Assembly (NCBI GenBank): GCA_017466805.1
Contig: JAFTTN010000029.1
Span: forward strand, 8,928 to 72,927
Direction: 5' to 3'
DNA from: Clostridia bacterium
Lineage (GTDB): Bacteria; Bacillota; Clostridia; Oscillospirales; CAG-382
DNA length: 64,000 nt
Under the pieces are notes generated by a model. That model was given only the letters and a program-made list of their open reading frames with translations. It was not told the DNA's origin and did no database searches. A program made the translations under genes and the position numbers. How positions within the stretch are numbered: position 1 is the stretch's first letter; every line of letters begins with the position of its first letter. This document shows, in pieces, positions 411 through 40,737 of the stretch.

Positions 411-423
411 GTAGGTGTATGTA

Positions 424-2286
424 ATGACGCGTGCTGAGCTTTACGAAAAAGCAAGACTTTTGCCCGCCACCCCGGGCGTGTATATTATGCGCAATAAATC
501 GGGCAGAATAATCTACGTCGGCAAATCAAAAGCGCTCAAAAACCGCGTTTCGAGCTATTTTTCCCCCTATTCCGACCACCACGGCAAAACCAAAAGAATG
601 GTCGAATCGGTAAACGATTTCGAGGTATATTATACCCTTACCGAGCTTGAAGCGCTTATTCAGGAAAACCAATTTATAAAGCAGTTCCAGCCCCGCTACA
701 ATATTAAATTAAAGGACGGCGGCGGATACCCGTATATAAAGCTTACCAATTCGGCTTACCCCGAATTTTCGATAGTTTATAAGCGCACCGCGGGTAACGA
801 TAAATATTTCGGGCCCTATTCTTCGCACCACGTTGCGCGCAATATTCTCGAAACCGTAAAAAAGGCGTTTTCGCTCCCCTCGTGCAACAAAGAATTTCCA
901 AAGGATATCGGAAAGGGAAGACCCTGCCTTAATTACCATATCGGGCGTTGCTGTGCGCCCTGCGTAAAGGGCAACGTTTCGGCAGACGACTATAAAGAGC
1001 TTGTAAACCGCGCCTCCGCACTTTTGAAGGGCGACGGCAAAAAGCTTATCGCACAGCTCGAGCAGGGTATGGAAATCGCTTCCGAGGGCTTGAATTTCGA
1101 GCTTGCCGCAAAGCTGCGCGATTGTATTTATGCGGTGAAAAAGCTGAACGATAAACAGCAAATTGTTTGCTCGCCCAGCGTAGAGGCAGATATTATCGGT
1201 ATTTATGCCGACGATTTGGGCAGCGCGCTTTCTTTGCTTTTTGTTAGAAACGGCGCGATAGTAGACCGCGAAAACTTCTTTTTCGGTGCGGACGAAATTA
1301 TAAACAGCCCGAACCTCGTTTCGTTTTTCCAAAGGTATTATGAATTAAGGGGCTATATACCCAAAAAGATATATATCGATTATCGGCTTGATGAAGCCGA
1401 CGACGAGCTTTTTACCGATTGGCTTTGCGCAAAGGCGGGATTTAAGGTCAGCGTTATCTGTCCCGAACGCGGCGATATGCGCGCCCTTGCCGTGCGTGCA
1501 AGCGAAAACGCAAAGCAGCTTATATTGCATAAGCGCAAAAGCGAGGACAGAAAAAAGGATTTTCTTATTTCGCTTTCGCAGCTTTTGGGGCTCGAGGTAC
1601 TGCCGGACAGAATCGAATCCTACGACGTTTCGCATTCTGCGGGGGAATATACGAGCTGCGGTATGATAGTTTTGGAGCACGGAAGCTTTGCAAAGCGCAA
1701 ATACCGCGGATTTAATATAAAAACCGTTGACGACGGCAACGATTTGGCGGCGTTAGAGGAATGCATACGCCGAAGATTTGCCCACGATAGCGACGAGGAG
1801 GGGTGGGAATACCCCGATTTGATGCTTATCGACGGCGGCGAAAATCAGGTTAGACGCGTAAAAAGCGTTCTTTCGGAAAAATCGCTGAATATCGCCTTTT
1901 TCGGTATGATAAAGGACGAACACCACAAAACCCGTACGCTAACCGACGGCGAAAACGAAATTTCGCTTATAACCCGTCAGGATGCGTTCGTGTTTATCTA
2001 TAAAATTCAGGAAGAGGTACACCGCTATTCGCTTTCGCTTATGGATGCGAAGCGCCGCAATGCAGTAAAGAAAAGCTCGCTCACCGAAATAAAGGGAGTG
2101 GGTGCAAAGCGCGCAAACGACCTTATGCTTCACTTCGGCACTCTTGCAGCGCTTAAAAGTGCAACAAGAGAACAGCTTTTGGAGGTAAAGGGTATAACCG
2201 AGCAGATTGCGGATGCGGTTTTGGAATACTTCGGAAAGGAAAAAGATGAGAATAATAACCGGAACAGCGAGAGGGACGAAGCTTAA
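424..2286 (+). CDS. uvrC: Excinuclease ABC subunit C
   Basis: N-terminal GIY-YIG motif (GVYIMRNKSGRIIYVGKSKALKNRVSSYF), about 620 aa, C-terminal HhH region. ATG at 424 preferred over GTG at 415 because AGGTG lies 7 nt upstream. Confidence 0.9.
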   Translation: MTRAELYEKARLLPATPGVYIMRNKSGRIIYVGKSKALKNRVSSYFSPYSDHHGKTKRMVESVNDFEVYYTLTELEALIQENQFIKQFQPRYNIKLKDGGGYPYIKLTNSAYPEFSIVYKRTAGNDKYFGPYSSHHVARNILETVKKAFSLPSCNKEFPKDIGKGRPCLNYHIGRCCAPCVKGNVSADDYKELVNRASALLKGDGKKLIAQLEQGMEIASEGLNFELAAKLRDCIYAVKKLNDKQQIVCSPSVEADIIGIYADDLGSALSLLFVRNGAIVDRENFFFGADEIINSPNLVSFFQRYYELRGYIPKKIYIDYRLDEADDELFTDWLCAKAGFKVSVICPERGDMRALAVRASENAKQLILHKRKSEDRKKDFLISLSQLLGLEVLPDRIESYDVSHSAGEYTSCGMIVLEHGSFAKRKYRGFNIKTVDDGNDLAALEECIRRRFAHDSDEEGWEYPDLMLIDGGENQVRRVKSVLSEKSLNIAFFGMIKDEHHKTRTLTDGENEISLITRQDAFVFIYKIQEEVHRYSLSLMDAKRRNAVKKSSLTEIKGVGAKRANDLMLHFGTLAALKSATREQLLEVKGITEQIADAVLEYFGKEKDENNNRNSERDEA

Positions 2287-2791
2287 AACGCTCGAGGGAA
2301 GAGATACCCGCCCCACCACCGAAATCTGCAAGGAGGGCGTTTTCTCGGCTATCCAGTTCGAGCTTCACGACAGATACGTGCTCGATTTGTTCGGCGGCAG
2401 CGGACAAATGGCGCTCGAAGCGCTTTCACGCGGGGCAGAAAAGGCGGTTATCGTCGATTCCTCGCGCGCGGCGTGCGAAATTATCAAGGAAAACGCGCAA
2501 AAAACCAAGCTTATGAAGCAGTGCCGCGTTGTTACTGCCGATTGGAAGGAATATATCAGAGGTGCATCGGGCAAGGAAAAATTCAACCTTGTTTTTCTCG
2601 ATCCGCCTTATCAGGAAGGGATACTCGATGAAATTCTGCACAGACTCAGCTATTCCGAGCTTTTGGCAGACGATGCGATAATCGTTTGCGAATCGGATAA
2701 GGACGGTATCCCCAACCCGATAGAAAGCTGCACGGTAAAGCAATACCGCTACGGTAAAACCTTCGTGACGATGATTCGTAAGGAGATATAA
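2246..2791 (+). CDS. rsmD: 16S rRNA (guanine966-N2)-methyltransferase RsmD
   Basis: MRIITGTARG...LDLFGGSGQMALEALSRGA...FLDPPY motifs. AAGGA RBS upstream of the ATG at 2246. Overlaps the uvrC tail by 41 nt. Confidence 0.85.
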   Translation: MRIITGTARGTKLKTLEGRDTRPTTEICKEGVFSAIQFELHDRYVLDLFGGSGQMALEALSRGAEKAVIVDSSRAACEIIKENAQKTKLMKQCRVVTADWKEYIRGASGKEKFNLVFLDPPYQEGILDEILHRLSYSELLADDAIIVCESDKDGIPNPIESCTVKQYRYGKTFVTMIRKEI

Positions 2792-3268
2792 ATGAGAACT
2801 GCAATCGTTTCGGGCACCTTCGATCCGATCACAGTCGGTCATCTCGACGTGATCCTGCGCGCCTCGCGTCTTTTCGACCGCGTTGTCGTTGCGGTATCGC
2901 AAAACAGCGAAAAGAAATGCCTGCTTCCCGATGAAATACGTGTAAACGCGGTGAAAGCGGCGATAAAGGGAATAGAAAATGCCGAAATCGAGCTTTGCGG
3001 CGGCTTGCTTGCCGAGTTTTGTTGCAGGTACGAAAGCCCTGTTATCGTGCGCGGTGCGCGCTCGGGCAGCGAATTCGATTACGAGCGCAGTCTGTATATT
3101 ATAAATAAAGGACTCGGCGCACCCGAAACGGTGGTTCTTCCCGCCGAAAGCGGAATGGATCATATAAGCTCTACCTACGTTCGCGAGCTTTTGAAGTACG
3201 GCAAGCCGATCGACGAGGTTGTGCCCGCAGGCGCAATCGAAATAATCGAGGAATATCTTGCGAAATGA
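2792..3268 (+). CDS. coaD: Phosphopantetheine adenylyltransferase
   Basis: 158 aa. GTFDPITVGHLDVI nucleotidyltransferase motif. Start abuts the rsmD stop. Confidence 0.9.
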   Translation: MRTAIVSGTFDPITVGHLDVILRASRLFDRVVVAVSQNSEKKCLLPDEIRVNAVKAAIKGIENAEIELCGGLLAEFCCRYESPVIVRGARSGSEFDYERSLYIINKGLGAPETVVLPAESGMDHISSTYVRELLKYGKPIDEVVPAGAIEIIEEYLAK

Positions 3269-4560
3269 AAAGCATAAGGATTAAAAGCACCGATATCCGT
3301 TTCCAACGCGAGCCTTTGCTTGCGCCTTTCGGCTTCAAGGGCAAATATTTAACAGAGCTTTGGCAAACGGTCGTAAAAATCGAAAGCGATAATTTTGCGT
3401 CTACCGCCCCCTGCACCATTTCGGTGCTTTGGTCGGACGCAAGCGTTTTTGCCGAGCATTCGCCCGATGAATCGAGCGCGCTTATGCGTGACGTTACCGC
3501 GCGTGCGCTTGAAATGATAAAAGGCGAAAGCTTCGTTTACCCCAACGAGCTTATAAACGGAATTTTTCCCGAGCTGAAGAAATACGCCGATAGGGTGTGC
3601 AACCGCACCGTTGCCGAAACCTTCGTGTTAAATTCGCTCGTCGGTGTCGATTATGCGCTTTGGTCGCTTTTTGCAAAAGAAAATAATATAACCGATTTTT
3701 CCGAAATAGTTCCGATGCACGCAAGACCTGCGCTTTCGCACCGCCATACGCGGCTTGCTCATATTCCGCTTGTAAGCTATGCCGTAACGGCAGACGGCTT
3801 AAAGAGCCTGCTCGATTCGGGCACCGGACTTCTTAAAATTAAAATCGGCAAGGCCTGCGGCGAAAATTTACCGCGTGAAGAGGATATGCGCAGTATGCTC
3901 GAATGGGATAAGGCAAGGCTTTCCGAAATTCACGAAATCGCAAGGAATTATCAAACTCCGCTTTCGAAAAGCCGAAATATACGCTATTATCTCGATGCAA
4001 ACGGCAGATACGATAATATATCGCGGCTCGAAGCATTGCTCGACCACGCAGATAAGATAGGCGCGCTTCAAAGCATTGAGCTTATCGAAGAACCCTTTGC
4101 ACCCGAAAACGAGGTTTACGTCGGCAGGCTTCCCGTTACCTTGAATGCCGACGAATCGGCGCATTCGCTTGCCGACGTCGAAAAACGGTTGCAGCTTGGC
4201 TATAAAGCGGTTGCGCTTAAGCCGATTGCAAAAACGATGTCGGTTTCCTTCGATATGGCTTCGGCGGTATACAATGCGGGCGCAACCTGCCTTTGTGCAG
4301 ACCTAACAGTCGTCCCTTTGCTTGCCGAATGGAATAAGCAGTTTGCGGCGCGTATAGGTGCGCTGGGCGGTATGAGCTGCGGCTGTATCGAAATAAACGG
4401 CAACCAGAACTATAAAAATTGGGATAAGCTTTGCAAAATGCTGCCCAAGGGGCTGGAATATGCCCCCGAGCAAAACGGAAGCTTTGAAATAAACGAGGAT
4501 TTTTATAAAAACGGCGCAAGGCTGTTTGATAAAAACGAATATATTAATTTGTTTAAATAA
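3265..4560 (+). CDS. Enolase-superfamily (mandelate racemase/muconate lactonizing enzyme-like) protein
   Basis: KIKIGK, YLDANGRY, IEEPF and LNADES match the KxK and the three metal-ligand motifs of the MR/MLE family. Substrate unknown. Confidence 0.65.
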   Translation: MKSIRIKSTDIRFQREPLLAPFGFKGKYLTELWQTVVKIESDNFASTAPCTISVLWSDASVFAEHSPDESSALMRDVTARALEMIKGESFVYPNELINGIFPELKKYADRVCNRTVAETFVLNSLVGVDYALWSLFAKENNITDFSEIVPMHARPALSHRHTRLAHIPLVSYAVTADGLKSLLDSGTGLLKIKIGKACGENLPREEDMRSMLEWDKARLSEIHEIARNYQTPLSKSRNIRYYLDANGRYDNISRLEALLDHADKIGALQSIELIEEPFAPENEVYVGRLPVTLNADESAHSLADVEKRLQLGYKAVALKPIAKTMSVSFDMASAVYNAGATCLCADLTVVPLLAEWNKQFAARIGALGGMSCGCIEINGNQNYKNWDKLCKMLPKGLEYAPEQNGSFEINEDFYKNGARLFDKNEYINLFK

Positions 4561-4575
4561 AGAAAGGCTACGGCT

Positions 4576-5562
4576 ATGAAAATCGCACTTCTTTTAAATC
4601 CCGGCACAAGAAATATGGTGTTTAACGAAAAATGCCTAAAAAGACTCGAAAACAGCGGTGAGGTCGTTATAAACGAGGGCGGCACCGATTTCGATTCTGT
4701 TGCAAAAGTTATCGAGGGCGCAGACGTTGTTGTGACGTCTTGGGGCAATAATCCCATCGACGAAAAGCATTTGGCGCTCTGCCCGAATTTAAAGCTTCTT
4801 ATCCACGCGGCAGGCTCGGTAAAGCCGGTCGTTTCGGATGAGCTTTGGAAAAAGGGTGTCCGCGTTACCGCAAGCGCAAACGTTTTAAGCATGGGCGTTT
4901 CCGAAACCGCGCTCGGATTTACTATTGCGGCTTCAAAGAACTTTTTTGCGCATAACGAAAATATACACAACGGCGGCTGGGCGGAAGGCAAGGAAAACAT
5001 CCGCGAGCTTTACGATTTAACAATCGGCGTAATCGGCGGCGGCTGGGCGGGCAGACATTATATCGAGCTTATGCAGGCGTTCGACGTCGATATTCTTCTC
5101 TACGACCCGTTTATGAGCGAGGAACGTGCAAACGCTATGGGCGCACGCAAGGCAGACCTTGAAACCGTTTTGAAGGAAAGCGATATTATTTCCATCCACG
5201 CGCCCCAAATTCCCGAAACCTACCATATGTTCAATGCAGATACGCTTAAGCTTATGAAGAAGGACGCAGTCCTTATCAATACCGCTCGCGGCACGATTAT
5301 CGATGAAGCAGCGCTTTACGAGCATATGAAGGCAGGCAACCTAAAATACGCTTGTCTTGACGTTACCGACCCCGAGCCTCCCGCAGAGGATAACCCCTTG
5401 CGTACGCTCAAAAATTGCATTATGACTCCCCACCTTGCAGGCCTTGCGAACAACGGTCTGAAAAAGATCGGTCAGCACGTTTGCGAGGAGCTGGAGCTGT
5501 TTATTGCCGAAGGCAAGCTTGAAACCGAGGTTACCGAGGAAATGCTTGCTCGAATGGCGTAG
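4576..5562 (+). CDS. D-isomer-specific 2-hydroxyacid dehydrogenase family protein
   Basis: NAD-binding GVIGGGWAGRH and the catalytic region INTARG...TPHLAG. Confidence 0.8.
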   Translation: MKIALLLNPGTRNMVFNEKCLKRLENSGEVVINEGGTDFDSVAKVIEGADVVVTSWGNNPIDEKHLALCPNLKLLIHAAGSVKPVVSDELWKKGVRVTASANVLSMGVSETALGFTIAASKNFFAHNENIHNGGWAEGKENIRELYDLTIGVIGGGWAGRHYIELMQAFDVDILLYDPFMSEERANAMGARKADLETVLKESDIISIHAPQIPETYHMFNADTLKLMKKDAVLINTARGTIIDEAALYEHMKAGNLKYACLDVTDPEPPAEDNPLRTLKNCIMTPHLAGLANNGLKKIGQHVCEELELFIAEGKLETEVTEEMLARMA

Positions 5563-5591
5563 TTGACAATAGCGCGTTTATATGGTAAAAT
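5563..5591 (+). promoter_or_regulatory. SigA-type promoter upstream of the surface protein gene
   Basis: TTGACA (5563-5568), 17-nt spacer, TAAAAT (5586-5591). Confidence 0.5.
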
Positions 5592-5621
5592 AAATCAAAT
5601 ATTTTATTTGGAGGCTATGTT

Positions 5622-6419
5622 ATGAAAAAGACACTCGCACTTATCTTTGCATTGATTCTTTGCGTTAGCTTTTCCTTTACCGCTTTCGCGGCAGATTACA
5701 CAGTAGGTGCCGACGGCAACGCCGTTTACGAAAGCGCAGTCGGCTACGTTTTCGATATCGAAGACGTTAACGGCACCATCAACGGCGAGGACGCTACTAT
5801 TCTTACCTCTGCAGACGGTCTTGCAAACTGCGGCAGCTGGGCTATCTGGCTCGTGGCTGAAAAGGTAGAAGGCTCTTCTGCTTACAAGGCTGTTACCAAC
5901 GGTGCGGCTATGGGCGGTACTTCTCCTTCCGTAACTCTTGAAGAAGGTCAGATTATTATCGTAGTTCACTCCTCTTCCTCTAACCCCAACGATGCCGCAA
6001 CCTATCCCAACTGGGAAGATAAGGTTGCCTGCATGGCTATTAAGGTTGGCGATTATCTTAAGTTCGACGGCATTAACCTCGCTGCAGGTACCTGCGAAAA
6101 CGGTACTATGACGGTTATCACCGAAGACGAGCTTGCAGACCTTCCCGCAGAGGAAGAAAGCTCGGAAGCACCTGTTGAAAGCTCGGAAGCACCCGCAGAA
6201 AGCTCCGAGGAAGCACCCGCAGAAAGCTCCGAAGCGGCAAACGAAGCCGTTTCCGACGCTACCCCCAACGAAGCTTCCACCGAGGATTCCGACGTTAAAT
6301 CCTCCGAAATGGAAATTGATAGCGACGACGGACTCGGCGTTTGGCTTTGGGTTATTATCGGCGTTGCAGTAATCGCGGTTGTTGCAGTAATCGCAATTCT
6401 TGCTAAAAAGAAGAAATAA
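5622..6419 (+). CDS. Secreted, C-terminally membrane-anchored acidic protein
   Basis: Signal peptide MKKTLALIFALILCVSFSFTAFA, ESSEAP repeat linker, C-terminal DGLG plus hydrophobic helix plus KKKK. Confidence 0.75.
   Translation: MKKTLALIFALILCVSFSFTAFAADYTVGADGNAVYESAVGYVFDIEDVNGTINGEDATILTSADGLANCGSWAIWLVAEKVEGSSAYKAVTNGAAMGGTSPSVTLEEGQIIIVVHSSSSNPNDAATYPNWEDKVACMAIKVGDYLKFDGINLAAGTCENGTMTVITEDELADLPAEEESSEAPVESSEAPAESSEEAPAESSEAANEAVSDATPNEASTEDSDVKSSEMEIDSDDGLGVWLWVIIGVAVIAVVAVIAILAKKKK
6156..6236 (+). repeat. Imperfect 21/24-bp in-frame tandem repeat (ESSEAP units)
   Basis: GAAAGCTCGGAAGCACC... repeated about 4 times inside the CDS. Confidence 0.8.
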
Positions 6420-29974: not shown

Positions 29975-31471
29975 ATGAGCGAAGAAATCAAGAACAATGC
30001 CCAACAGGAAACGGTTAACCTCGGCGACCTTTTAGCAGTGCGCCGCCAAAAGCTTGCCGACCTTCAGGCAGAGGGCAAGGACCCGTTCGTTATAACCAAG
30101 TACGACGTTACACACCACAGCGCAGATATAAAAGAAAATTACGTCGAAAACCAAGAGGTAAGCATCGCCGGCAGACTTATGTCCAAGCGTGTTATGGGTA
30201 AAGCCTCTTTCTGCAATGTTCAGGATTTAAAGGGTACTATTCAGTGCTACGTCGCGCGCGATAATATCGGCGTCGAGGAATATCAAGGCTTTAAGAAGTT
30301 CGATATCGGCGATATAGTCGGTGTAAAGGGCAGCGTTTTCACCACCAAAACCGGTGAGATCTCTATCCACGTTACCGAAATCACCCTTCTTTCGAAGAGC
30401 TTGCAGATTCTTCCCGAAAAGTATCACGGTCTTACCAATACCGATACGAGATACCGTCAAAGATACGTCGACCTTATTATGAATGCCGACGTAAAGGATA
30501 CCTTTATCAAGCGCTCCAAAATAATCAGCTCTATCCGTCGCTTTCTCGATGCGCAGGGCTTTTTAGAGGTGGAAACACCTATGCTCGTTTCGAACGCGGG
30601 CGGCGCTGCGGCAAGACCCTTCGAAACCCACTTCAATGCACTTGACGAGGATTTCAAGCTTCGTATCTCGCTCGAGCTTTACTTAAAGCGTCTTATCGTC
30701 GGCGGTATGGAACGCGTTTACGAAATCGGCAGAGTTTTCCGTAACGAAGGCTTGGATACCCGCCATAACCCCGAATTTACGCTTATGGAGCTTTATCAGG
30801 CATATACCGATTACCACGGTATGATGGACCTTACCGAAAATATGTACCGTCACGTTGCAAACGAGGTGCTCGGCACCACCACTATCGTTTACAACGGTGT
30901 GGAAATGGACCTCGGTAAGCCCTTTGAGCGTATCACGATGGTAGATGCGGTTAAAAAATATTCGGGCGTGGATTTCAACGAAATCAAAACGCTCGAAGAA
31001 GCACGCGCAATCGCAAAGGAAAAGGGTGTGGAATACGAGGACCGTCACAAGAAGGGTGATATCCTTAACCTCTTCTTCGAGGAATTTGTGGAAGAGCACC
31101 TTATTCAGCCCACCTTCGTAATGGATCACCCGGTAGAAATCTCGCCGCTTACCAAGCGTAAGCCCGAAAACCCCGAATACGTAGAACGCTTCGAATTCTT
31201 TATGAACGGCTGGGAAATGGCAAACGCATACTCCGAGCTTAACGACCCGATCGATCAGCGCGAACGCTTCAAGGATCAGGAAGCACAGCTTGCCGCAGGC
31301 GATGCCGAAGCAAACACCACCGACGAGGACTTCCTCAACGCACTCGAAATCGGTATGCCCCCCACAGGCGGTATCGGCTACGGTATCGATAGAATGTGTA
31401 TGCTTCTTACCGATTCGCAGGCTATCCGCGACGTTTTGCTTTTCCCCACGATGAAGAGTTTGGATAAGTAA
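29975..31471 (+). CDS. lysS: Lysine--tRNA ligase (class II)
   Basis: 498 aa. [20 protein letters not shown] and [15 protein letters not shown] motifs. The last 5 codons differ from the displaced copy at 32510-32524. Confidence 0.9.
31400..31456 (+). repeat. 57-bp direct repeat, copy 1 (inside the lysS 3' end)
   Basis: ATGCTTCTTACCGATTCGCAGGCTATCCGCGACGTTTTGCTTTTCCCCACGATGAAG, identical to 32453-32509. Confidence 0.95.
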
Positions 31472-31563
31472 AATACAATAACGGCCCGATTCTATTGCAA
31501 TCGGGCTTCGTTGCTTTTACAAACGTAAATACAGTTGCATACAGATGTTAATGTGAGGTAAAC

Positions 31564-32433
31564 GTGCTAAATAGAATATATTCGGAAAGCTGGAACGTTG
31601 CATTCAGAAATACTCCCACAGGCGATATATTAAATAACAAAAGCGAGCCTTTCACAATTATAAAGAACAATTTCAGATATTGGGCGGCAGATCCGTTCGT
31701 TCTTGAAATCAAAGATAAGGTGTACGTATTTGCCGAGTTGTTCGATTACATATTGCGCCGCGGTATCCTGGGATATTGCACTATCTCGGATAACAAAGCA
31801 AGTAAATGGACTCCGATTATCAAAGAGCCCTATCATCTGTCCTTTCCGTGTGTTTTTATGCAAGACGGCGTTGTTTATTTAATGCCGGAATCTAATGCGG
31901 GTGAGGTTTTGACGCTGTATAAGTGTGAAGAATTTCCTTGCACTTGGAAAAGAATCAAAACATTGCGGTCGAACGTAAAATTTGCCGATACTACTCCTAT
32001 GCCGTTTCCGTGGCAACGCTATGCCGTTACGCACAGCATAAACGACGTAAACGATCCGAAATTGTTGCTGATCGATACGTTCGGGGAGGAAGCAGATAGG
32101 TGCGTTCCGCACGAGAATACGTTGCGCTCGCGTCCCGCCGGTCACTTTTTGAGCTATAAAGAAAAAATGCTTCGCCCTGCGCAGTATTCAGAGGATAACG
32201 ATAAAGGATACGGCAAAAGTCTGGTGTTTTACGAATGCAAATTCGACGGTTCGGAATACTCCGAAATAGAGTTTGCAGAGATTAAGCCGGAAGAACAGTG
32301 TTATAATAAAAGAATATATTTGAATGGTATGCATACGTATAATTCAAGCGAACACTACGAGGTAATAGACCTAAAAACCCGTAGATTTAATCCGTTGGAT
32401 TTTATAATGCGATTGCTCGGAAAAGTATTTTGA
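31564..32433 (+). CDS. Hypothetical protein in the lysS-associated insert (possible GH43-like/GINT1-like beta-propeller family)
   Basis: 289 aa with a GTG start. WAADPF...HLSFPCVF..DGVVYLMPES resembles the bacterial 'glucosamine inositolphosphorylceramide transferase family' by recollection only. Confidence 0.55.
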   Translation: MLNRIYSESWNVAFRNTPTGDILNNKSEPFTIIKNNFRYWAADPFVLEIKDKVYVFAELFDYILRRGILGYCTISDNKASKWTPIIKEPYHLSFPCVFMQDGVVYLMPESNAGEVLTLYKCEEFPCTWKRIKTLRSNVKFADTTPMPFPWQRYAVTHSINDVNDPKLLLIDTFGEEADRCVPHENTLRSRPAGHFLSYKEKMLRPAQYSEDNDKGYGKSLVFYECKFDGSEYSEIEFAEIKPEEQCYNKRIYLNGMHTYNSSEHYEVIDLKTRRFNPLDFIMRLLGKVF

Positions 32434-32452
32434 CCGATTGCCCGCGATTGCC

Positions 32453-32509
32453 ATGCTTCTTACCGATTCGCAGGCTATCCGCGACGTTTTGCTTTTCCCC
32501 ACGATGAAG
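32453..32509 (+). repeat. 57-bp direct repeat, copy 2
   Basis: Perfect copy of 31400-31456. Confidence 0.95.
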
Positions 32510-32524
32510 CCTCTTTCGGAGTAA
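32453..32524 (+). pseudogene. Displaced lysS 3' fragment (...[23 protein letters not shown])
   Basis: In-frame continuation of the repeat to a TAA at 32522-32524, followed by a strong terminator. Confidence 0.8.
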
Positions 32525-32529
32525 TATTA

Positions 32530-32568
32530 AGCCGAAAACGCTTATTTCAAGGCGTTTTCGGCTTTTTG
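32530..32568 (+). terminator. Intrinsic terminator (probable original lysS terminator)
   Basis: Stem AGCCGAAAACGC/GCGTTTTCGGCT followed by a T-run. Confidence 0.8.
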
Positions 32569-32730
32569 TTTGTTCAAAATATTGCTTGAAAAAGTGTTTT
32601 GCGACAGATTTACGACAAGCATATTTGCAAATGACCTTTGTGCTCTACGAAAAAGCAGTGTCGTAAATAAACAGCGTTTTATTATAAGGCTTTAACCATA
32701 GTTTGTTAGAGCCTTATTTTTGCAAAAATG

Positions 32731-32759
32731 TTGACATTTAGTGTGAATGGTGATAAAAT
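32731..32759 (+). promoter_or_regulatory. SigA-type promoter upstream of the TetR/ABC operon
   Basis: TTGACA (32731-32736), 17-nt spacer, TAAAAT (32754-32759). Confidence 0.55.
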
Positions 32760-32801: not shown

Positions 32802-33362
32802 ATGCCGCCTAAGGTTAAAGTGACAAAAGAAGAGATTATAAGTGCTGCCGTTAATATTGTGCGAAGCAGTGGAGCGCAAGCGATCAATGCAAGAACAATC
32901 GCTTCTGTTTTGAACTGTTCTACGCAACCGGTGTTTTCGAATTTTGCTACGATGGACGAGCTGCGTTTTGCTGTTGTAGAAAGAGCGGATATGCTGTGTC
33001 AAGAGTATATGCAGCGAGAAGTTGATAGCGGGAGGTTTCCTGCTTACAAGGCAAACGGTATGGCATACATACGGTTTGCCAAAGAAGAAAAAGAACTGTT
33101 CAAGCTTCTTTATATGCGTGATCGTTCGAGCGAATTAATTCCCGAAACAACAGAGCAAACCGACAAAATGGAGTCGATGGTCCATAATAATACGGGACTT
33201 AACGGGGCAGATGCAAAGCTATTCCACCTCGAGATGTGGGCGTATGTTCATGGAATTGCCACGATGTTTGCAACAGGATTTTTAGATCTTGATTGGGGGC
33301 TTGTAAGCCGTATGCTCACGGATTCTTATCAGGGACTTCGGAAACAATATGGTATGGAGTGA
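32802..33362 (+). CDS. TetR/AcrR-family transcriptional regulator
   Basis: N-terminal HTH region EEIISAAVNIVRSSGAQAINARTIASVLNCSTQPVFSNF. Confidence 0.8.
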   Translation: MPPKVKVTKEEIISAAVNIVRSSGAQAINARTIASVLNCSTQPVFSNFATMDELRFAVVERADMLCQEYMQREVDSGRFPAYKANGMAYIRFAKEEKELFKLLYMRDRSSELIPETTEQTDKMESMVHNNTGLNGADAKLFHLEMWAYVHGIATMFATGFLDLDWGLVSRMLTDSYQGLRKQYGME

Positions 33363-33368
33363 TAACGA

Positions 33369-34097
33369 ATGGACGCTATTAGAATCGAAAATTTAACAAA
33401 AAAATATAAAGATGTCGTTGCGGTAGATTCTCTTGATCTTTCCGTTCACAAGGGCGAATTGCTTTCTTTGCTCGGTGTAAACGGAGCGGGAAAAACAACT
33501 ACAATAAAAATGTTGTCCTGCCTTACACAACCCACAAGCGGAGATGCCTTTATTAACGGAAAAAGCATTTGCAAAGATACTGCCGCGGTGAAATCGATCA
33601 TAGCTGTTTCTCCGCAGGAAACTGCGATTGCGTCGGGTCTTTCGGTACGTGAAAACCTTGAACTGATGTGTGGTGTTTACGGCTTTACAAAGGACAAGGA
33701 AAAAGCGAAAATCGCAGAACTGACCGAACTGCTCGGATTGAAAACCGTTATCAAGAAAAAAGCAGGCAAACTGTCGGGAGGCTGGCAACGTAGACTGAGC
33801 ATTGCCATGGCGCTTATCAGCGAACCGAAGATATTGTTTCTTGACGAACCAACGCTTGGTCTTGACGTACTTGCCCGAAGCGACTTGTGGGATATGATAC
33901 GTTCGCTTAAAGGGAAGGTTACCATTATTCTGACAACGCATTATATGGAAGAAGCAGAAGCTTTGTCCGACCGTATCGCTATTATGAAAGACGGTAAGCT
34001 CCTTATATGCGATGCCGCTGACAAGATTAAGGAAACAGCGGGAACGGATAATTTAGAGCAGGCATTCATTCGTATCGTTAAGGGGGTGGCAAAATGA
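33369..34097 (+). CDS. ABC transporter ATP-binding protein
   Basis: Walker A GVNGAGKTT, signature LSGGWQRR, Walker B LFLDEPT. Confidence 0.9.
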   Translation: MDAIRIENLTKKYKDVVAVDSLDLSVHKGELLSLLGVNGAGKTTTIKMLSCLTQPTSGDAFINGKSICKDTAAVKSIIAVSPQETAIASGLSVRENLELMCGVYGFTKDKEKAKIAELTELLGLKTVIKKKAGKLSGGWQRRLSIAMALISEPKILFLDEPTLGLDVLARSDLWDMIRSLKGKVTIILTTHYMEEAEALSDRIAIMKDGKLLICDAADKIKETAGTDNLEQAFIRIVKGVAK

Positions 34098-34825
34098 GAA
34101 TGCTCACTTTTGCAAACAGAAATACAAAAGAAATATTGCGCGATCCGTTGACACTTATCTTTGGACTCGGCTTTCCCCTTGTTTTAATTTTGCTGTTAAG
34201 TGCCATACAAGCTAATATCCCCGTAGAACTCTTTGAGGTACAGCATTTAACTCCGGGTGTAACGGTTTTCGGTTTGGCTTTTATGACGCTGTTTTCGGCA
34301 ACCATTATCGCAAAAGACAGAGGCAGTTCGCTGTTGCAGCGTTTGTATACAACGCCATTGACCCCTTTGGATTTCATACTTGGTTACACGTTGCCTATCA
34401 TTCCGATTTCTGTCGCTCAATGCGTTATCTGCTATATTGCGGCAATCGTTCTCGGGCTGGATATTACAATTAATATTTTGTATGCTGTGGTATGTATCAT
34501 TCCTGTTTCTATCCTCTACATTGCTATTGGACTTCTTTGCGGAAGTGTACTGAACTATAAGCAGGTGGGGGGCATCTGCGGCGCGTTGCTAACAAACCTT
34601 TCGGCGTGGTTGTCGGGTGTTTGGTTTGATCTTGAACTTGTAGGAGGTGCTTTTAAGAAGATTGCATATGCACTTCCGTTTGTTCATGCGGTAGAGATGG
34701 AACGCGCTATGCTTGCAGGCGATTTTTCGGGGATTTTTCCGCATCTTTGGTGGGTGCTTGGATATGCTGCCGTTCTGTTTGTATTAGCGGTGTTAATGTT
34801 CCTGCGACAGATGAAAAAACAGTAA
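34094..34825 (+). CDS. ABC-2-type transporter permease
   Basis: 243 aa, about six TM helices, 4-nt overlap with the ATPase gene. Confidence 0.8.
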   Translation: MRMLTFANRNTKEILRDPLTLIFGLGFPLVLILLLSAIQANIPVELFEVQHLTPGVTVFGLAFMTLFSATIIAKDRGSSLLQRLYTTPLTPLDFILGYTLPIIPISVAQCVICYIAAIVLGLDITINILYAVVCIIPVSILYIAIGLLCGSVLNYKQVGGICGALLTNLSAWLSGVWFDLELVGGAFKKIAYALPFVHAVEMERAMLAGDFSGIFPHLWWVLGYAAVLFVLAVLMFLRQMKKQ

Positions 34826-35069
34826 TTATCTAAATTAGAGGATACGTATTTCCTTGTTCGACAACCGAAAAAAATAAATAAGCATTCAAGCCGAGAAACC
34901 GAAATTCGTTTCAAGGCTTGGGTGCTTTTTTGTTATTGTGAGGACCTTTTGTTATAGTTTTTGAAACAAGAACGCGTTTTCTTGGGAAACGTGTTGTGTA
35001 TATTCAACAAAAACGCTTTCCTAATCTACAGCTCTTTATACAAAATTTCAGCAAATTTGCCTTTTTGGC

Positions 35070-35098
35070 TTGCAATCCTATTTAGAGAGTGATATAAT
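35070..35098 (+). promoter_or_regulatory. SigA-type promoter upstream of the repeat-protein gene
   Basis: TTGCAA (35070-35075), 17-nt spacer, TATAAT (35093-35098). Confidence 0.55.
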
Positions 35099-35144
35099 CA
35101 AACACATAAGTGTTCTTTGCAACTATAAGTTAGGAGAAATTCAA

Positions 35145-38100
35145 ATGAAAAGCTTTAAAAAAGTGTTATCGTTGCTGTTAACTGCAATGCTGTTGTTCGG
35201 CGTTTTGCCGATGGGCAGTGTAATGGCTGACGATACTTCCGCAGTCCTTACCTATGCAAACGGTTGGGACTGGAGCGATAGCCTTTGCTATCAAAACCAT
35301 ATCTTCGTGTATGCATCAAGCTCATCGAGCGCAACCCCCGCAACCATTCACGGTCAGGGCGTTGGCTTTTTACAGTGGCAAAACGGTATCGTTTTTGAAT
35401 ACAACGAAGAAAACGGCACCTGGAAGGTTGTCGTAGCCGACTTTGAAGCAGACGGCGTAAACGAAGCCGAATCGGCAAAGCTCGGCAGCAACAGATTTGC
35501 GGTTATTTTCCACGACGAAGCAGTCGTAGGACAAAAGGATAGCTACAATTATCTTATAAACAATGCGGTATTGGATGCCGAATTCGTTTTGAACGGCAGT
35601 ATTTCGGGCCTTCAGTCCGCATCCGGTAAAATTTCCGGTTATTCGCTTACCTTGGCTGTGACCGAGGAAGAAGAAACCCCCGCAATTCCCGAGCCCGAAA
35701 CTATAACCGTTTCGGGTAAGCTTACCTATGCAAACGGCTGGAATTGGAGTGATAGCCTTTGCTATCAGAAGCAGATATTCGTATACGCTTCGACCTCGTC
35801 GTCTGCAACCCCCGCAACGATTCACGGTCAGGGCGTAGGCTTTTTGCAGTGGCAAAACGGTATCGTTCTTGAATACAACGAGACGAACGACACCTGGAAG
35901 GTTATCGTTTCCGACTTCGAGGCGGACGGCGTAAACGAAGCCGAATCGGCAAAGCTCGGCAACAACAGATTTGCGGTTATCTTCCATAACGAAGCGGTAG
36001 TGGGACAGGAAGAAAGCTTTAATTTCTTCGCTAACTACGCAAAGTTAGATACCGAGCTCGTTCTTAATTGCGATATTTCCGACCTTCAGTCTGCATCGGG
36101 CGCAATTTCCGGAGTAACCCTTTCCTATACCTACGTAGTAGAGCCCGAGGTATCCGAGCCCGAGGTATCCGAACCCGAGGTATCCGAGCCCGAAGTGTCC
36201 GAGCCCGAGGTGCCCGAGCCCGAAGTGTCCGAGCCCGAAGTGTCCGAGCCCGAAGTGTCCGAGCCCGAAGTATCCGAGCCCGAAACTTCCGAGCCCGAAA
36301 CTTCTGAACCCGAACCCGAGCCCGAACCCGAACCCGAGCCCGAACCCGAACCCGAGCCCGAACCCGAGCCCGAACCCGAGCCCGAGCCCGAACCCGAGCC
36401 CGAACCCGAAGTTGAAACCGTGACCGTTTACGGCAACCTTACCTATGCGAACGGCTGGAATTGGAGTGATAGCCTTTGCTATCAGAAGCAGATATTCGTA
36501 TACGCTTCGACCTCGTCTTCCGCAACCCCCGCAACGATTCACGGTCAGGGCGTAGGCTTTTTGCAGTGGCAGAACGGTATCGTTTTCGAATACAACGAAG
36601 AAAACGGCACCTGGAAGGTTATAGTTGCCGATTTTGAAGCAGACGGCGTAAACGAAGCCGAATCGACAAAGCTCGGCAGCAACAGATTTGCAGTAATATT
36701 CCACGATGAAGCGGTAGTAGGTCAGGAAGAAAGCTTTAATTTCTTTAAGACCTATGCGGCAGTAGACGCCGAATTCGCTCTTAACTGCGGTGTTTCTACA
36801 CTTCAATCCGCTTCCGGCGCTATATCCGACGTAACGCTTTCCTATACCTACGTTGTGGAAAAGACTCCCTCCGAGCCCGAGCAGGAGCCCGAAGAGGAAC
36901 CGGTTACCCCCTCCGAGCCCGAGCAGGATATACCCACCACATCTACCGAATACAGCGTTCTTACCTTTGTAAACGGCTATGCTTGGAGCGACAGCAAGCC
37001 TTTGGAAAACAATATTTTCCTTTATGCTTCCACCAATGCTTCGGCAACCGTTGCAAGCATAAACGGTCAAACCTTCCTCGGAAGCCTTAACGGTATTATT
37101 CTTGAATATAACGAGTCAAAGGGCACCTGGACGGTCGTATTGACCGACTACGAAATAGACGACGTAAACCTTGCCGAATCCGCAACGCTCGGCAGTAACA
37201 GAATCGCCGTTATCTTCCATAACGATGCGGCGGTCGGCTTGGCAGACAGCTATAGCTTCCTTATGAACAACGCGACTGTCGGCGCCGAATTCGTTCTCAC
37301 CGGCGAAATCACTGCACTTCAGTCGGTATCCGGTAAGATAAAGAACGTATATCTCTCGCTCGGTAAGCTAAGCTTCCCCGAAGAAGAAAAAACGCCGGTA
37401 GATACCACCGTCGGCACTATCCAATCGACAATCGGCTTGTATACCTCCCAAAGCTATCCCTCTGCATCCTCGGGTGATACCGACGGCTTGAGCGCAGTAT
37501 TGTACGCACCGCAGAACAGCACCGTGGGTATTTCCACCTATATCAATCTTGCGGCTATTAATACCTCGCTTTATACCAGCAGCGATGCACTTGCAAAGCA
37601 AAATATCGGATGCGGTATTGCAAGCGATAAGAATATCGATAACGCATACCTCTACCTCTGCCTGAACTCGACCAACTGGAGCGGCGACTTCGGCTTGATC
37701 AAGCGCTTGGGCGACGAGGATTGGGAAATCGTTACCTCCGAATACAAAAACAGCGCTTGGCGCTGGAACGCGTATGCATATTCGAGCGACGTTACCGTAA
37801 CCTATAACCCCGATTATGTCTATACAAAGTGGAACGTAATGGACGGCTTGAACGTTTATTACATCAAAAACAGCTATAGCGTTAAGGATTTGCAGTTGAA
37901 CCTCGTTTATAACAACGGCACCCTTACCTATTCGCTCTGCATCGGCGGTGTTACCATCTTCTCGGTATCCGATACCGGCAGCATCAGCAACGGCAAATAC
38001 GGCAGAGCCGCTTCGATCACCAACTCGAGCACTACCTCTTACGGCTCCTCCAACTATTTGTATCAGCTTTCCGGAACGCTCAACGGACGCACTCCCGCGG

Positions 38101-38315
38101 CTCTTACCAACGTTCAGTTCTACGATTCCTACTATTACACCACGAGCGGCTACGATAAGCTCACGTTAAGCACCGGCAGCTTGTGGCTCTATCCTTGTGC
38201 ATCTTCGTCGGCGGGCTATTTGGTTAATACCGAAGGCGACCCGATAGTAACCTGCGAGGAGGTCACGTTGACCAGCGGCGTAGTAATGGATATTATCGAT
38301 ATTCAAAACTATTAA
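35145..38315 (+). CDS. Large secreted repeat protein (1057 aa), function unknown
   Basis: TAGGAGA RBS plus the ATG at 35145. Signal peptide [28 protein letters not shown]. Four copies of a roughly 140-aa module ([14 protein letters not shown]...[19 protein letters not shown]). EPEVS/EP linker. Roughly 330-aa unique C-terminal domain. Confidence 0.8.
35247..36850 (+). repeat. Three near-identical roughly 410-bp coding modules (starts 35247, 35721 and 36438), plus a divergent fourth near 36960-37370
   Basis: Long identical runs between modules 2 and 3, for example CTGGAATTGGAGTGATAGCCTTTGCTATCAGAAGCAGATATTCGTATACGCTTCGACCTCGTC. Confidence 0.85.
36141..36410 (+). repeat. In-frame microsatellite-like tract: 15-bp (EPEVS) units, then 6-bp (EP) units
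   Basis: GAGCCCGAGGTATCC-type units about 10 times, then GAACCCGAGCCC about 19 dipeptide repeats. Confidence 0.9.
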
Positions 38316-38325
38316 AACAATCAAA

Positions 38326-38356
38326 ACGACTCGAAGAGATTCGAGTCGTTTTTTTG
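38326..38356 (+). terminator. Intrinsic terminator after the repeat-protein gene
   Basis: Stem ACGACTCGAA/TTCGAGTCGT, loop GAGA, T-run. Confidence 0.8.
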
Positions 38357-38444
38357 CAAAAAAACAAAAAAGAAAGAAAAACATACGCAAAGTCCTTTTA
38401 ATCGGACATCAGCTATGCTATAATACAGGAAAGGAGCGAAAAAT

Positions 38445-39344
38445 ATGTATTTAGATAGCTTTGTGTTGCCGATAGATAAAGAAGAACTGCTGTTACAAAG
38501 ACGCGCCGAGAAAAACGGCGGACATTTGGGATATATCGATAATTCCTATCCCTGCGGACTTTTTGCAAATAAAGAGCTGTACGAGATAGGCTTTAAACGG
38601 ATAACGATCTTTTATGGCGGGAACGGCTCGGGAAAAAGCACGCTTTTGAATCTGATTGCCGAAAAGCTCGAGCTCAACCGCATATCTCCGTTCAATTCAA
38701 GCGAAATGTTTGCGTCTTATGCCGAAAGCTGTGAATATACGCTCGGCTATGACGACGAAGGCTTTCGACACCGCATACCGAACGGAAGCAGAATTATTAC
38801 AAGCGACGATATTTTCGATTATATGCTTACGGTGCGCACAAACAACGCTGAAATAAGCGAGGGCAAGGAAGCTGCAAAGGCCGAATGGGCAGAGCTGAAA
38901 TACGGCGACACCGTTAAATTCGAGGGGATACAGGATCACGAGGCATTAAGGCTTCAGATTCTCGCACGGAAAAAAACCGTTTCTCGCAGGCAGTTTATAC
39001 GCAAAACCGTGGGCAGCGAAGCAAAGCTGAACAGTAATGGCGAAACCGCACTTCAGTATTTCGGGCAAAAGCTAAAGAACGATACGCTTTATTGCCTTGA
39101 TGAGCCTGAAAACAGTATGTCGCCGAAAATGCAGCTGGAGCTTGTGAAGATGCTCGAGGAAATGGCACGCTATTGCGGCTGTCAGTTTATTATTGCAACC
39201 CATTCACCATTTCTTTTGGCGCTCGACGGCGCAAGGATATACGACCTTGATTCCCGCCCGGCAGAAATAAAAGAATGGTGGGAGCTCGAAAACACCAAGC
39301 TATATTTCGAATTTTTCGAAAAGCACCGCCGACTTTTCAAATAA
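38445..39344 (+). CDS. Stand-alone AAA/ABC-like ATPase (299 aa)
   Basis: Walker A GGNGSGKST, Walker B LYCLDEPENSMSP, H-loop IIATHSP. No adjacent partner gene on the same strand. Confidence 0.75.
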   Translation: MYLDSFVLPIDKEELLLQRRAEKNGGHLGYIDNSYPCGLFANKELYEIGFKRITIFYGGNGSGKSTLLNLIAEKLELNRISPFNSSEMFASYAESCEYTLGYDDEGFRHRIPNGSRIITSDDIFDYMLTVRTNNAEISEGKEAAKAEWAELKYGDTVKFEGIQDHEALRLQILARKKTVSRRQFIRKTVGSEAKLNSNGETALQYFGQKLKNDTLYCLDEPENSMSPKMQLELVKMLEEMARYCGCQFIIATHSPFLLALDGARIYDLDSRPAEIKEWWELENTKLYFEFFEKHRRLFK

Positions 39345-39961: not shown

Positions 39962-39993
39962 ATCAAAAATCAAAGAAAATTCGGTTGTTGGTT

Positions 39994-40737
39994 ATGATAA
40001 AAAATTGGCTTAAAAAGGAAATAAAGCAAAGCTCGATATTGCTTCGAAGCATTCCCGCAACGGTAATGACGCTGTTCGTGGTAAGCGTGGTATGTATGAA
40101 CCTGCTTGCAAACAAAACCCTGCTTCAGCTCGAATGGATAGCTATCGACGGCGGAATACTTATATCCTGGCTTTCTTTTATGTGTATGGATATAGTAACC
40201 AAGCATTTCGGGCCGGGCGCATCGAACAGAATATCGGTGCTTGCCGCAATAATCAATCTGCTTACCTGCTTAATATTTTTCGTCGCAAGCATAATACCCT
40301 CGAACGCGGGCGATTACAGCGTGTTCGACGGCATTTTCGGAGGAACCTGGTTTATTCTGCTCGGCAGTACGGTGGCGTTCCTTTCGTCCGCGGTTATAAA
40401 TAATATGCTTAATTTCGTTATAGGCAAGGCGTTTAAAAAGAATCCCGACGGAAAAGCGGCGTACGCTATGCGCACCTACGTTTCTACCTTTATCGGTCAG
40501 TTTTTTGATAACTTTATCTTTTCGGTAATCGTTTTCGTGGGCTTTGCGCCGATATTTTGGGACGGCTTTCATTGGACTTTGCTTCAGTGCGCAATGTGCG
40601 CGCTTACCGGAGCAATCGCCGAGCTGATAATGGAAATAGTGTTTTCGCCGATCGGCTACCGAATAGTAACCTATTGGAAGGGTAATTCGGTCGGCAGCGA
40701 ATATCTTGATTATATCGAAAGCGAGAATAAAAAATGA
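39994..40737 (+). CDS. yhhQ: Queuosine-precursor transporter (YhhQ/VUT family)
   Basis: Polytopic. N-terminal and overall pattern is typical of DUF165/YhhQ (IPATVMTLFVVSVVCMNLLANK...ISWLSFMCMDIVTK). The start could be TTG at 39985. Confidence 0.7.
   Translation: MIKNWLKKEIKQSSILLRSIPATVMTLFVVSVVCMNLLANKTLLQLEWIAIDGGILISWLSFMCMDIVTKHFGPGASNRISVLAAIINLLTCLIFFVASIIPSNAGDYSVFDGIFGGTWFILLGSTVAFLSSAVINNMLNFVIGKAFKKNPDGKAAYAMRTYVSTFIGQFFDNFIFSVIVFVGFAPIFWDGFHWTLLQCAMCALTGAIAELIMEIVFSPIGYRIVTYWKGNSVGSEYLDYIESENKK

Follow-up and report, generated by a model that had tools for sequence, protein, structure and literature searches.

How does the end of a lysine–tRNA ligase gene come to stand twice in one genome, about a kilobase apart and with a single gene in between, and which of the two ends is the gene's own? 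The question is raised by a 64 kb stretch of DNA from a Clostridia bacterium (assembly GCA_017466805.1, contig JAFTTN010000029.1, positions 8,928 to 72,927; hereafter the window), in which the last part of lysS recurs as a perfect copy behind a gene of 289 codons, orf289. Comparison with relatives assigns the native end to the first copy and places the second at the border of a horizontally spread cassette carrying a TetR regulator and an ABC exporter. For the 996-bp block between the copies, the explanation that we favour, with a confidence close to even, is that it is a fixed, non-canonical scar of stacking or duplication in a decayed tandem array at an integration hotspot in the 3' end of lysS.

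Coordinates are window positions, and the features of the array are on the + strand, apart from the decamer repeats, to which no strand is assigned. The lysS open reading frame (ORF; 29975–31471, lysine--tRNA ligase by its NCBI name) is intact, encodes 498 aa with the Pfam domains tRNA-synt_2 (class II synthetase) and tRNA_anti-codon (OB-fold), and ends TMKSLDK. A 57-mer (ATGCTT...ATGAAG) occurs exactly twice in the window with 0 mismatches, as copy 1 within lysS (31400–31456) and as copy 2, a non-coding fragment of the lysS 3' region (32453–32509); a third copy with up to three mismatches is absent from the window, where shuffled sequences give an expectation of 0 matches. The 996 bp between them (31457–32452) begin with the tail SLDK and its stop codon (31457–31471), followed by a terminator-like hairpin (31483–31507; −15.7 kcal/mol, z = −4.1) and a T-rich run that ends at 31517. 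The sole ORF between the copies is orf289 (31564–32433), matched in Pfam by PF24793 (GINT1_N), and its stop codon is separated from copy 2 by 19 nt, here called segment C (CCGATTGCCCGCGATTGCC, 32434–32452), which forms a non-canonical joint. Past copy 2 the lysS frame runs on to PLSE and a stop codon (32522–32524), and a much stronger hairpin with a T-run follows (32529–32564; −25.5 kcal/mol, z = −8.1). A Pfam scan of the 43 main ORFs of the window, smaller ORFs being left out, detected no integrase, transposase, serine recombinase or DDE domain; the window contains neither tRNA genes nor Rfam matches, and no meaningful terminal inverted repeat bounds the 996-bp block. In all these respects the first-pass annotation of this DNA had described the locus correctly: the perfect 57-bp direct repeat, the two frame ends, the strong terminator behind copy 2, the single 289-aa ORF, and the lack of integrase, transposase and inverted repeat. 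It had overlooked the hairpin after copy 1, and its hand counts had exaggerated a difference in GC content that is right in direction (41.6% in the 996-bp insert, 49.0% in lysS and 47.0% in the whole window).

At least seven assemblies, made independently from different samples, contain the two-copy arrangement. Among these are L001, L002, L096, L100, L101 and L102 (comparison loci are given by such L numbers), some of them MEGAHIT contigs built at k=141, with k-mers that span the whole repeat. Additionally, a Logan unitig of 1056 nt equals 996 nt plus 2 x 30 nt and matches the graph branching expected at a genuine repeat. Because independent assemblies reproduce the arrangement, the repeat is no assembly artefact, the possibility that the first-pass annotation had named as fatal to its own reading. 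The conspecific strains form three lineages with pairwise differences of 0.6–2%, and the joint between segment C and copy 2 is shared by every conspecific assembly that spans both copies, the L100–L102 lineage having one substitution in C. The third base of copy 2 (32455) is G in the window, T in L100–L102 and A in L098, while the remaining 54 nt still equal lysS. The start of copy 2 thus reads ATG, ATT or ATA according to strain, which shows that copy 2 mutates freely and has begun to diverge. Neither an empty site for the 996-bp block nor a second location for it was found among conspecific genomes. Neither the JGI metagenome contigs nor the viral contigs, collections from which the species is absent, contain a 30-mer taken from the repeat (0 matches each), and LysS proteins ending in PLSE, looked up exactly as two alleles that a hypothetical empty site would encode, are absent from a collection of ~15 billion proteins. 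The first-pass annotation had held that a fixed arrangement without empty sites would point to an ancient duplication, and this is in part what we see: each conspecific genome found carries the arrangement, and copy 2 has started to diverge.

For the question of which end is native, we fetched lysS loci from other species for comparison (n=80). The nearest relatives, with 86–93% LysS identity, end TMKS[LIV]DK, in many cases using the codons found in copy 1, and 5/5 conspecific LysS proteins in the ~15 billion protein collection end SLDK. The layout after copy 1, ACAATAAC plus hairpin, matches the native terminators of L008 and L009 and also the displaced native end in L099, where it stands behind the second copy of the lysS end. 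Since relatives and conspecifics share both the tail and the terminator layout, we identify the SLDK tail and its terminator, by comparison, as the clade's own lysS end. The first-pass annotation had assigned the ends the other way round, with copy 2 as the original end and the tail of copy 1 as a replacement. This polarity is contradicted by the S[LIV]DK ends of the relatives and by the presence of PLSE-type tails with their hairpin on a cassette elsewhere, and the same comparison identifies the PLSE tail and strong hairpin as the left end of the TetR/ABC cassette, not the original end of lysS.

The sequence that recurs at junctions is far shorter than 57 bp. It is a core of ~15 bp (about 13–15 bp), TCCCCACNATGAAR, which lies four codons inside lysS. 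In the window it occupies the last 14 nt of copy 1 (TCCCCACGATGAAG, 31443–31456, as delimited from junctions in L077, L084, L089, L090–L095 and L097) and 32496–32509 in copy 2; core junctions number two in the window and three in L097, with others in L077, L084, L089 and L090–L095. Every demonstrable element-side junction, in L077, L084, L089, L090, L093 and copy 3 of L097, ends ...TC/CCCAC (the slash marks the boundary). Many lysS loci have genes that belong to integrative and conjugative elements (ICEs) straight downstream, including those for DUF6075, ParA, ParB, RepA_N and Xis-like proteins, and these are preceded by tandem decamers whose sequence varies from locus to locus, a pattern that fits arm-type sites. 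An integrase beside the attachment (att) site was not detected among the 43 main ORFs scanned in the window and is present only in the related loci L089, with xis and a Tn916-type int, and L088, with a split integrase. Taken together, the compared sequences indicate that elements with tyrosine integrases use the lysS 3' end as an attB hotspot. The attL/attR geometry proposed by the first-pass annotation therefore survives as a duplicated lysS 3' end at an integration hotspot, and does not survive as a 57-bp att core.

Several further observations concern this hotspot. Tandem decamers fall within the first 150 nt past the lysS stop codon in ~40 of loci L004–L083, in variants such as GTACGACAA, TTGACAACAA, TTACACCAA, TTTACCAA, TTGCAACAA and others, and a conserved motif resembling AATCAAGGGTTTGCGG usually precedes them; such a pattern resembles that of integrase arm sites co-varying within a large family of elements. 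An rRNA operon behind lysS, considered in view of the tandem decamers and the many contigs ending there, was rejected, as no rRNA was found and long contigs show ICE genes. In L013 (7461–13458) the genes directly behind lysS, past tandem ATTTGACATC repeats, are those of BREX (BrxA and a 1194-aa protein), so that the hotspot carries defence islands too. The LysS proteins P0130 and P0133 are nearly identical and differ only in their tails, KPLD in one and KSIDK in the other. The KPLD genome is L088 (10001–20276), in which small ORFs, the split tyrosine integrase, and Band_7, zinc-ribbon and TPR/TIR genes follow lysS in what looks like a defence-type island; the tail difference beside a split-integrase element shows that insertion swaps the lysS tail. 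In L077 (7483–8290), from an Oscillospiraceae metagenome-assembled genome, an integrase-less insert of ~760 bp at lysS holds one 159-aa ORF with no Pfam match, has CCCCACRATGAAGCCCCTKGAYTAA on both flanks and bears its own ATATAAGAA repeats near both ends. LysS extends ~145–160 aa beyond ...TMKSL (motif DFSKV...AVKVK...) in L010, L012, L016 and many Lachnospiraceae (for example L015, L017, L019 and L034), and the extension begins at the very position at which elements inserted in other species exchange the tail. Finally, homologues of window 415–6419 (uvrC to a 2-hydroxyacid dehydrogenase) are found inverted, straight behind lysS, in L010 (7971–13496) and L004 (4835–5335), which implies that one of the lineages underwent a rearrangement with its breakpoint at the lysS 3' end.

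The cassette that begins at the core of copy 2 is ~2.4 kb long and integrase-less, and its cargo consists only of a TetR-family regulator (32802–33362, by Pfam), an ABC ATPase (33369–34097) and an ABC-2 permease (34094–34825), the latter two assigned through matches to Pfam ABC_tran and ABC2_membrane on the identical L001 genes. Its left end, comprising the PLSE tail (32510–32524), the hairpin and the T-run (32510–32574 in all), has homologous counterparts in L089 and L090–L095. Further in lie arm-type-like decamer repeats (32597–32668), with TTTTGCGACA and GATTTACGACA in direct orientation at 32597–32617 and ATTTACGACA inverted at 32659–32668, and a sigma-70-like promoter predicted by a promoter scan (32731–32759). 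Such decamers also stand at both ends of the cassette in L090 and L093, and in L089; we infer that they are integrase arm sites or operators.

Complete copies of the cassette are found at lysS in another species. In L090–L095 the lysS core is followed by a PLAE tail, a homologous hairpin, TTTACGACA decamers, the TetR, ABC ATPase and ABC-2 permease genes and decamers once more, and the right end is formed by a second lysS-end core, ...GTGAAATC/CCCACCATGAAG/, then a PLDK tail and another terminator. From ~32477–32496, inside copy 2, to 34856–34864, the window is 87% identical to L090–L095 and 89% identical to L089 at the nucleotide level, whereas for its adjacent lysS 3' region the identity to L090 falls to 67%. 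The left-end hairpin shows compensatory stem changes between L089 or L090–L095 and the window, and the cluster to which the TetR protein of the window belongs spans more genomes than orf289. In L089 the cassette follows a Tn916-type xis and a gene for a 414-aa integrase that has the Tn916 arm-binding domain (its domains being Integrase_DNA, SAM-like and catalytic); the junction reads ...GGTC/CCCACAATGAAG/CCCCTCGCAGAGTAA, and three CTACGCCAA repeats lie beside int. The occurrence of the same unit at lysS in other species, with its own ends, shows that the TetR/ABC module is a portable, integrase-less cassette targeting the lysS 3' end, with a PL[AS]E tail and hairpin as its left end. The copy in the window is truncated on the right (34826–34864): homology to complete copies stops at 34856–34864, 31–39 nt past the permease stop codon and before the right-arm repeats, the right core is missing, and a third, degenerate core that might close the cassette was not found in the window. 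The cassette of L090–L095 thus has cores and decamers at both ends, the window copy is without right arm and right core, and the orf289 block, with cores to its left and right, is without arm repeats. By its sequence organisation, the complete cassette fits the published definition of a cis-mobilizable element (CIME), and the copy in the window is a CIME-like unit whose right end has been lost. The first-pass annotation had considered a remnant of a larger island or a cassette mobilised in trans; this was the right family of ideas, with the polarity reversed.

Just past the truncated cassette lies another hairpin (34880–34945; −25.1 kcal/mol), which has 73% identity over 26 nt to the left-end hairpin and precedes genes for a 1081-aa repeat protein and an AAA_21/ABC-like product (35070–39344 together). 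The 1081-aa protein (35070–38315; 1062 aa in L097) is composed of four internal repeats of ~240 aa that share 81–85% nucleotide identity with each other and are divided by (SEPEV)n and (PE)n linkers, and it has no convincing Pfam domain. Synteny with L008 returns only at a Vut_1 gene (39985–40737). The stretch from 34.9 to 39.9 kb may represent one more array unit, its core having been deleted.

Sister strains reveal a further unit within the array. In L097 and L098 an extra gene, for a 324-aa GT10 fucosyltransferase, parts the PLSE tail from the copy 2 core, at a point between window positions 32509 and 32510. The array of these strains reads ...copy 2-AGTTTGGATAAGTAAAA-35 nt-ORF-TAA-TACTATC/CCCACAATGAAG/CCTCTTTCGGAG. 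The unit is bounded by TCCCCAC[G/A]ATGAAG, with ~35 nt before the ORF and 6 nt after it, and its right end in L097 is a canonical boundary. The window equals the L097 arrangement minus this unit, which is bounded by the 15-bp core with one mismatch. This shows a recent change precisely at the core within the host species, and the core of copy 2 appears to behave as a secondary attB-like landing site. In L097 and L098 the orf289 block is flanked by a perfect repeat of 74 nt, consisting of the 57-mer, the SLDK tail with its stop codon, and AA. L099, from another species, has lysS, core, SLDK tail and fucosyltransferase gene, then a perfect copy of 36–38 nt of its own lysS end, and after it the native SIDK tail and terminator.

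The gene within the 996-bp block belongs to a family of 377 homologues that are normally found inside exopolysaccharide (EPS)/capsule glycosyltransferase clusters. Its AlphaFold model (predicted local distance difference test score 94) is a five-bladed beta-propeller, with Foldseek likeness to GH43, GH62, GH130 and GH117 enzymes. The profile and structure searches that the first-pass annotation had recommended thus yielded PF24793 and a propeller fold, and orf289 is predicted to encode an orphan EPS-type beta-propeller protein out of its usual EPS context. Cassette behaviour across the orf289 family found no support, since 0/78 further metagenome loci of the family have lysS or the core nearby; viral relatives were not found, and plasmid matches were confined to generic ABC genes. 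The closest homologue (74% identity) is in L084, where it falls to the chromosomal (attR) side of an element insertion. Upstream of it the sequence ...GTGGAAATC/CCAACGATGAAG/AGCTTGGATAAG represents an element right arm ~70% identical to the right arm of the cassette, the core, and a degenerate SLDK tail; past it comes a convergent EPS cluster and no core.

The ends of the block are unequal. The left end coincides with the canonical boundary between core and tail. The right end is non-canonical: copy 2 begins 45 nt before the canonical ...TC/CCCAC boundary, and these extra bases on its left equal the host lysS. At the left end of the TetR cassette, by comparison, the boundary is canonical. Arm repeats are absent from both ends of the block. 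With a right junction 45 nt off the core and no arm sites, canonical integration does not explain the 996-bp block. We also considered copy 2 as the remnant of a longer, decayed foreign lysS fragment, and rejected this, because the segment to the left of the 57-mer has no lysS similarity (score 9, null 95th percentile 10).

In the explanation that we favour, the array reads, from left to right, lysS with its native tail and terminator, orf289, the non-coding 57-base copy, and the TetR/ABC cassette with its left end at the core of that copy. The cassette and the fucosyltransferase unit would have entered or left by core-by-core recombination, with an integrase supplied in trans. The 57-bp copy would have arisen once, before the known strains split, through a non-canonical event that stacked two alternative lysS-downstream segments; the 996-bp block would now be fixed and immobile, with copy 2 decaying neutrally. 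Candidate events, all of them generally known mechanisms, are a tandem duplication running from the lysS end to orf289, a homology-anchored illegitimate joining, and the single-crossover entry of a circularised native segment, each of which would leave the joint between segment C and ATGCTT. A search of the literature on duplications by homology-facilitated illegitimate recombination returned nothing usable. We prefer a scar because the tail and terminator are of native type, the block is fixed, copy 2 is decaying, and neither an empty site nor a second location was found.

Several points weigh against this explanation. The joint between C and copy 2 has several candidate origins, and no unduplicated, parental genome was found among conspecifics. 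The arm-site role of the decamers is putative. With a GC content of 41.6% against 47% in its surroundings, and absent downstream of lysS in the nearest species (L004–L012), orf289 fits an acquired unit as well as a native one. The pairwise distances describe three roughly equidistant strain lineages, with which gain and loss of the fucosyltransferase unit are both compatible. Lastly, the repeat in L099 and that in the window mean that long host-identical repeats around single glycan genes have arisen at least twice, which hints at a recurrent mechanism.

The alternative that survives best, which we consider unlikely yet deserving of serious attention, is that the 996-bp block forms a single-gene cassette of its own, integrase-less and made up of lysS tail, terminator, orf289 and a lysS-derived right arm. 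A circle of this composition would have entered a genome whose lysS already bore the TetR cassette, joining at the lysS core through an integrase acting in trans or through RecA within 57–74 bp of homology, and the 57-bp repeats would then be attL and attR. The geometry is suitable, with direct repeats on both sides and a replacement tail and terminator at the left, and the L099 fucosyltransferase unit has the same geometry with its native tail and terminator clearly displaced. The SLDK tail stands to the left of both glycan genes in two species each, the fucosyltransferase unit is present or absent exactly at the core among conspecifics, and the 74-nt perfect repeat of L097 is what would be expected if a circle with a contiguous copy of the lysS end had recombined with lysS; the low GC content of orf289 and its position outside the usual EPS context point the same way. 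Such a circle or tandem joint would read ...GCGATTGCC-57-mer-AGTTTGGATAAGTAAAATACAATAACGG, where L097-type strains read ...TAAAAGCATCTC, and a fucosyltransferase circle would read ...TACTATCCCCAC[A/G]ATGAAGAGTTTGGATAAGTAAAAGCATCTC. However, measured from the canonical TC/CCCAC boundary, the right junction of the block falls 45 nt too far left, arm-type repeats are lacking at the block ends, and the tail and terminator look native to the clade. Moreover, all conspecifics have the block, with no empty site and no second location, the 78 other family members show no association with lysS, and no core follows the L084 homologue.

A broader possibility, to which we give an outside chance, is that the lysS 3' end serves as an integron-like platform, at which single-gene units without arm sites or recombinase, such as orf289 and the GT10 fucosyltransferase gene of the sister strains and L099, are captured and stacked. 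Each unit would bring a lysS tail of a few codons with a stop, and would leave a long copy of the host lysS end as the next landing pad. The recombination would be the work of integrases specific to lysS that arrive with passing ICEs, or of a mechanism anchored in homology and new to science.

We think it very improbable that a transposition-like mechanism of unknown kind inserted the orf289 segment into the lysS 3' end with staggered cuts 57–74 nt apart and so left the repeats as a long target-site duplication. It is true that the repeats match perfectly, equal the host sequence and vary in length (57/74 nt here, 36–38 nt in L099), but the scanned ORFs of the window include no transposase, there are no terminal inverted repeats, both independent cases sit at the same integrase hotspot, and the left boundary of each insert is the integrase core–tail boundary. 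Weakest of all is a mis-join or collapse at a short repeat, for which the metagenome-assembled source and the breaking of Logan unitigs at the repeat might speak, and which the agreement of the independent assemblies, including k=141 contigs spanning the 57-mer, and strain variants with their own single-nucleotide polymorphisms around copy 2 reduce to almost nothing.

Known systems provide close parallels. In streptococci, ICEs and dICEs are reported to insert at the lysS 3' end by site-specific tyrosine integrases, the direct repeats, drawn from that gene end, measuring 13 or 17 bp (Ambroset et al. 2016, PMC4701971). The target gene and region are the same here, with a core of ~13–15 bp four codons inside the gene and related loci that carry ICE genes and a Tn916-type integrase. 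In contrast, the hosts here are uncultured gut and rumen Clostridia, the window is without integrase and conjugation genes, and its 57-bp repeat is far longer than the core. In the ICESt1/ICESt3 system, CIMEs have lost integrase and transfer genes, keep attL and attR, and accrete in tandem with ICEs or integrative mobilizable elements at the 3' ends of housekeeping genes (reviewed by Guedon et al. 2017, PMC5704250). The TetR/ABC cassette of L090–L095, with cores and repeats at both ends and no recombinase, and the L089 cassette in tandem with an ICE correspond to this, the L089 structure being the published accretion arrangement; the window cassette differs in having lost its right att, and the orf289 block in its lack of arm repeats and its non-canonical right junction. 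Dehalococcoides ssrA-specific islands form tandem arrays behind a single-copy essential gene, with a direct repeat of the gene's 3' end, and some lack integration genes and have been proposed to be cis-mobilizable or fixed (McMurdie et al. 2011, PMC3146451). These islands use a serine recombinase (the CcrB-like DsiB), a 20-bp repeat and an RNA gene as target, whereas here the target is a protein-coding 3' end, for which each unit must supply codons and a stop. Integron cassette arrays share the stacking of compact single-gene units at one site, but the window has no IntI, and the separators are lysS 3' fragments, not attC-like imperfect palindromes. Finally, the insertion of an insertion sequence or transposon would differ from this locus, where neither a transposase among the scanned ORFs nor terminal inverted repeats were found.

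The phenomenon as such is already known from streptococcal ICEs, and this locus adds a further example of it. Integration at the lysS 3' end, tandem accretion there and CIME-like remnants are thereby extended from streptococci to uncultured gut and rumen Clostridia. For annotation the locus carries a caution, as a duplicated gene end with a 'better' terminator need not be the original one. If a recurrent mechanism does exist, long host-identical repeats around single glycan genes would be worth targeted study. An integrase-less cassette encoding a TetR regulator and an ABC exporter is portable and shared between species, and when elements insert here they replace the final few codons of an aminoacyl-tRNA synthetase that is essential.

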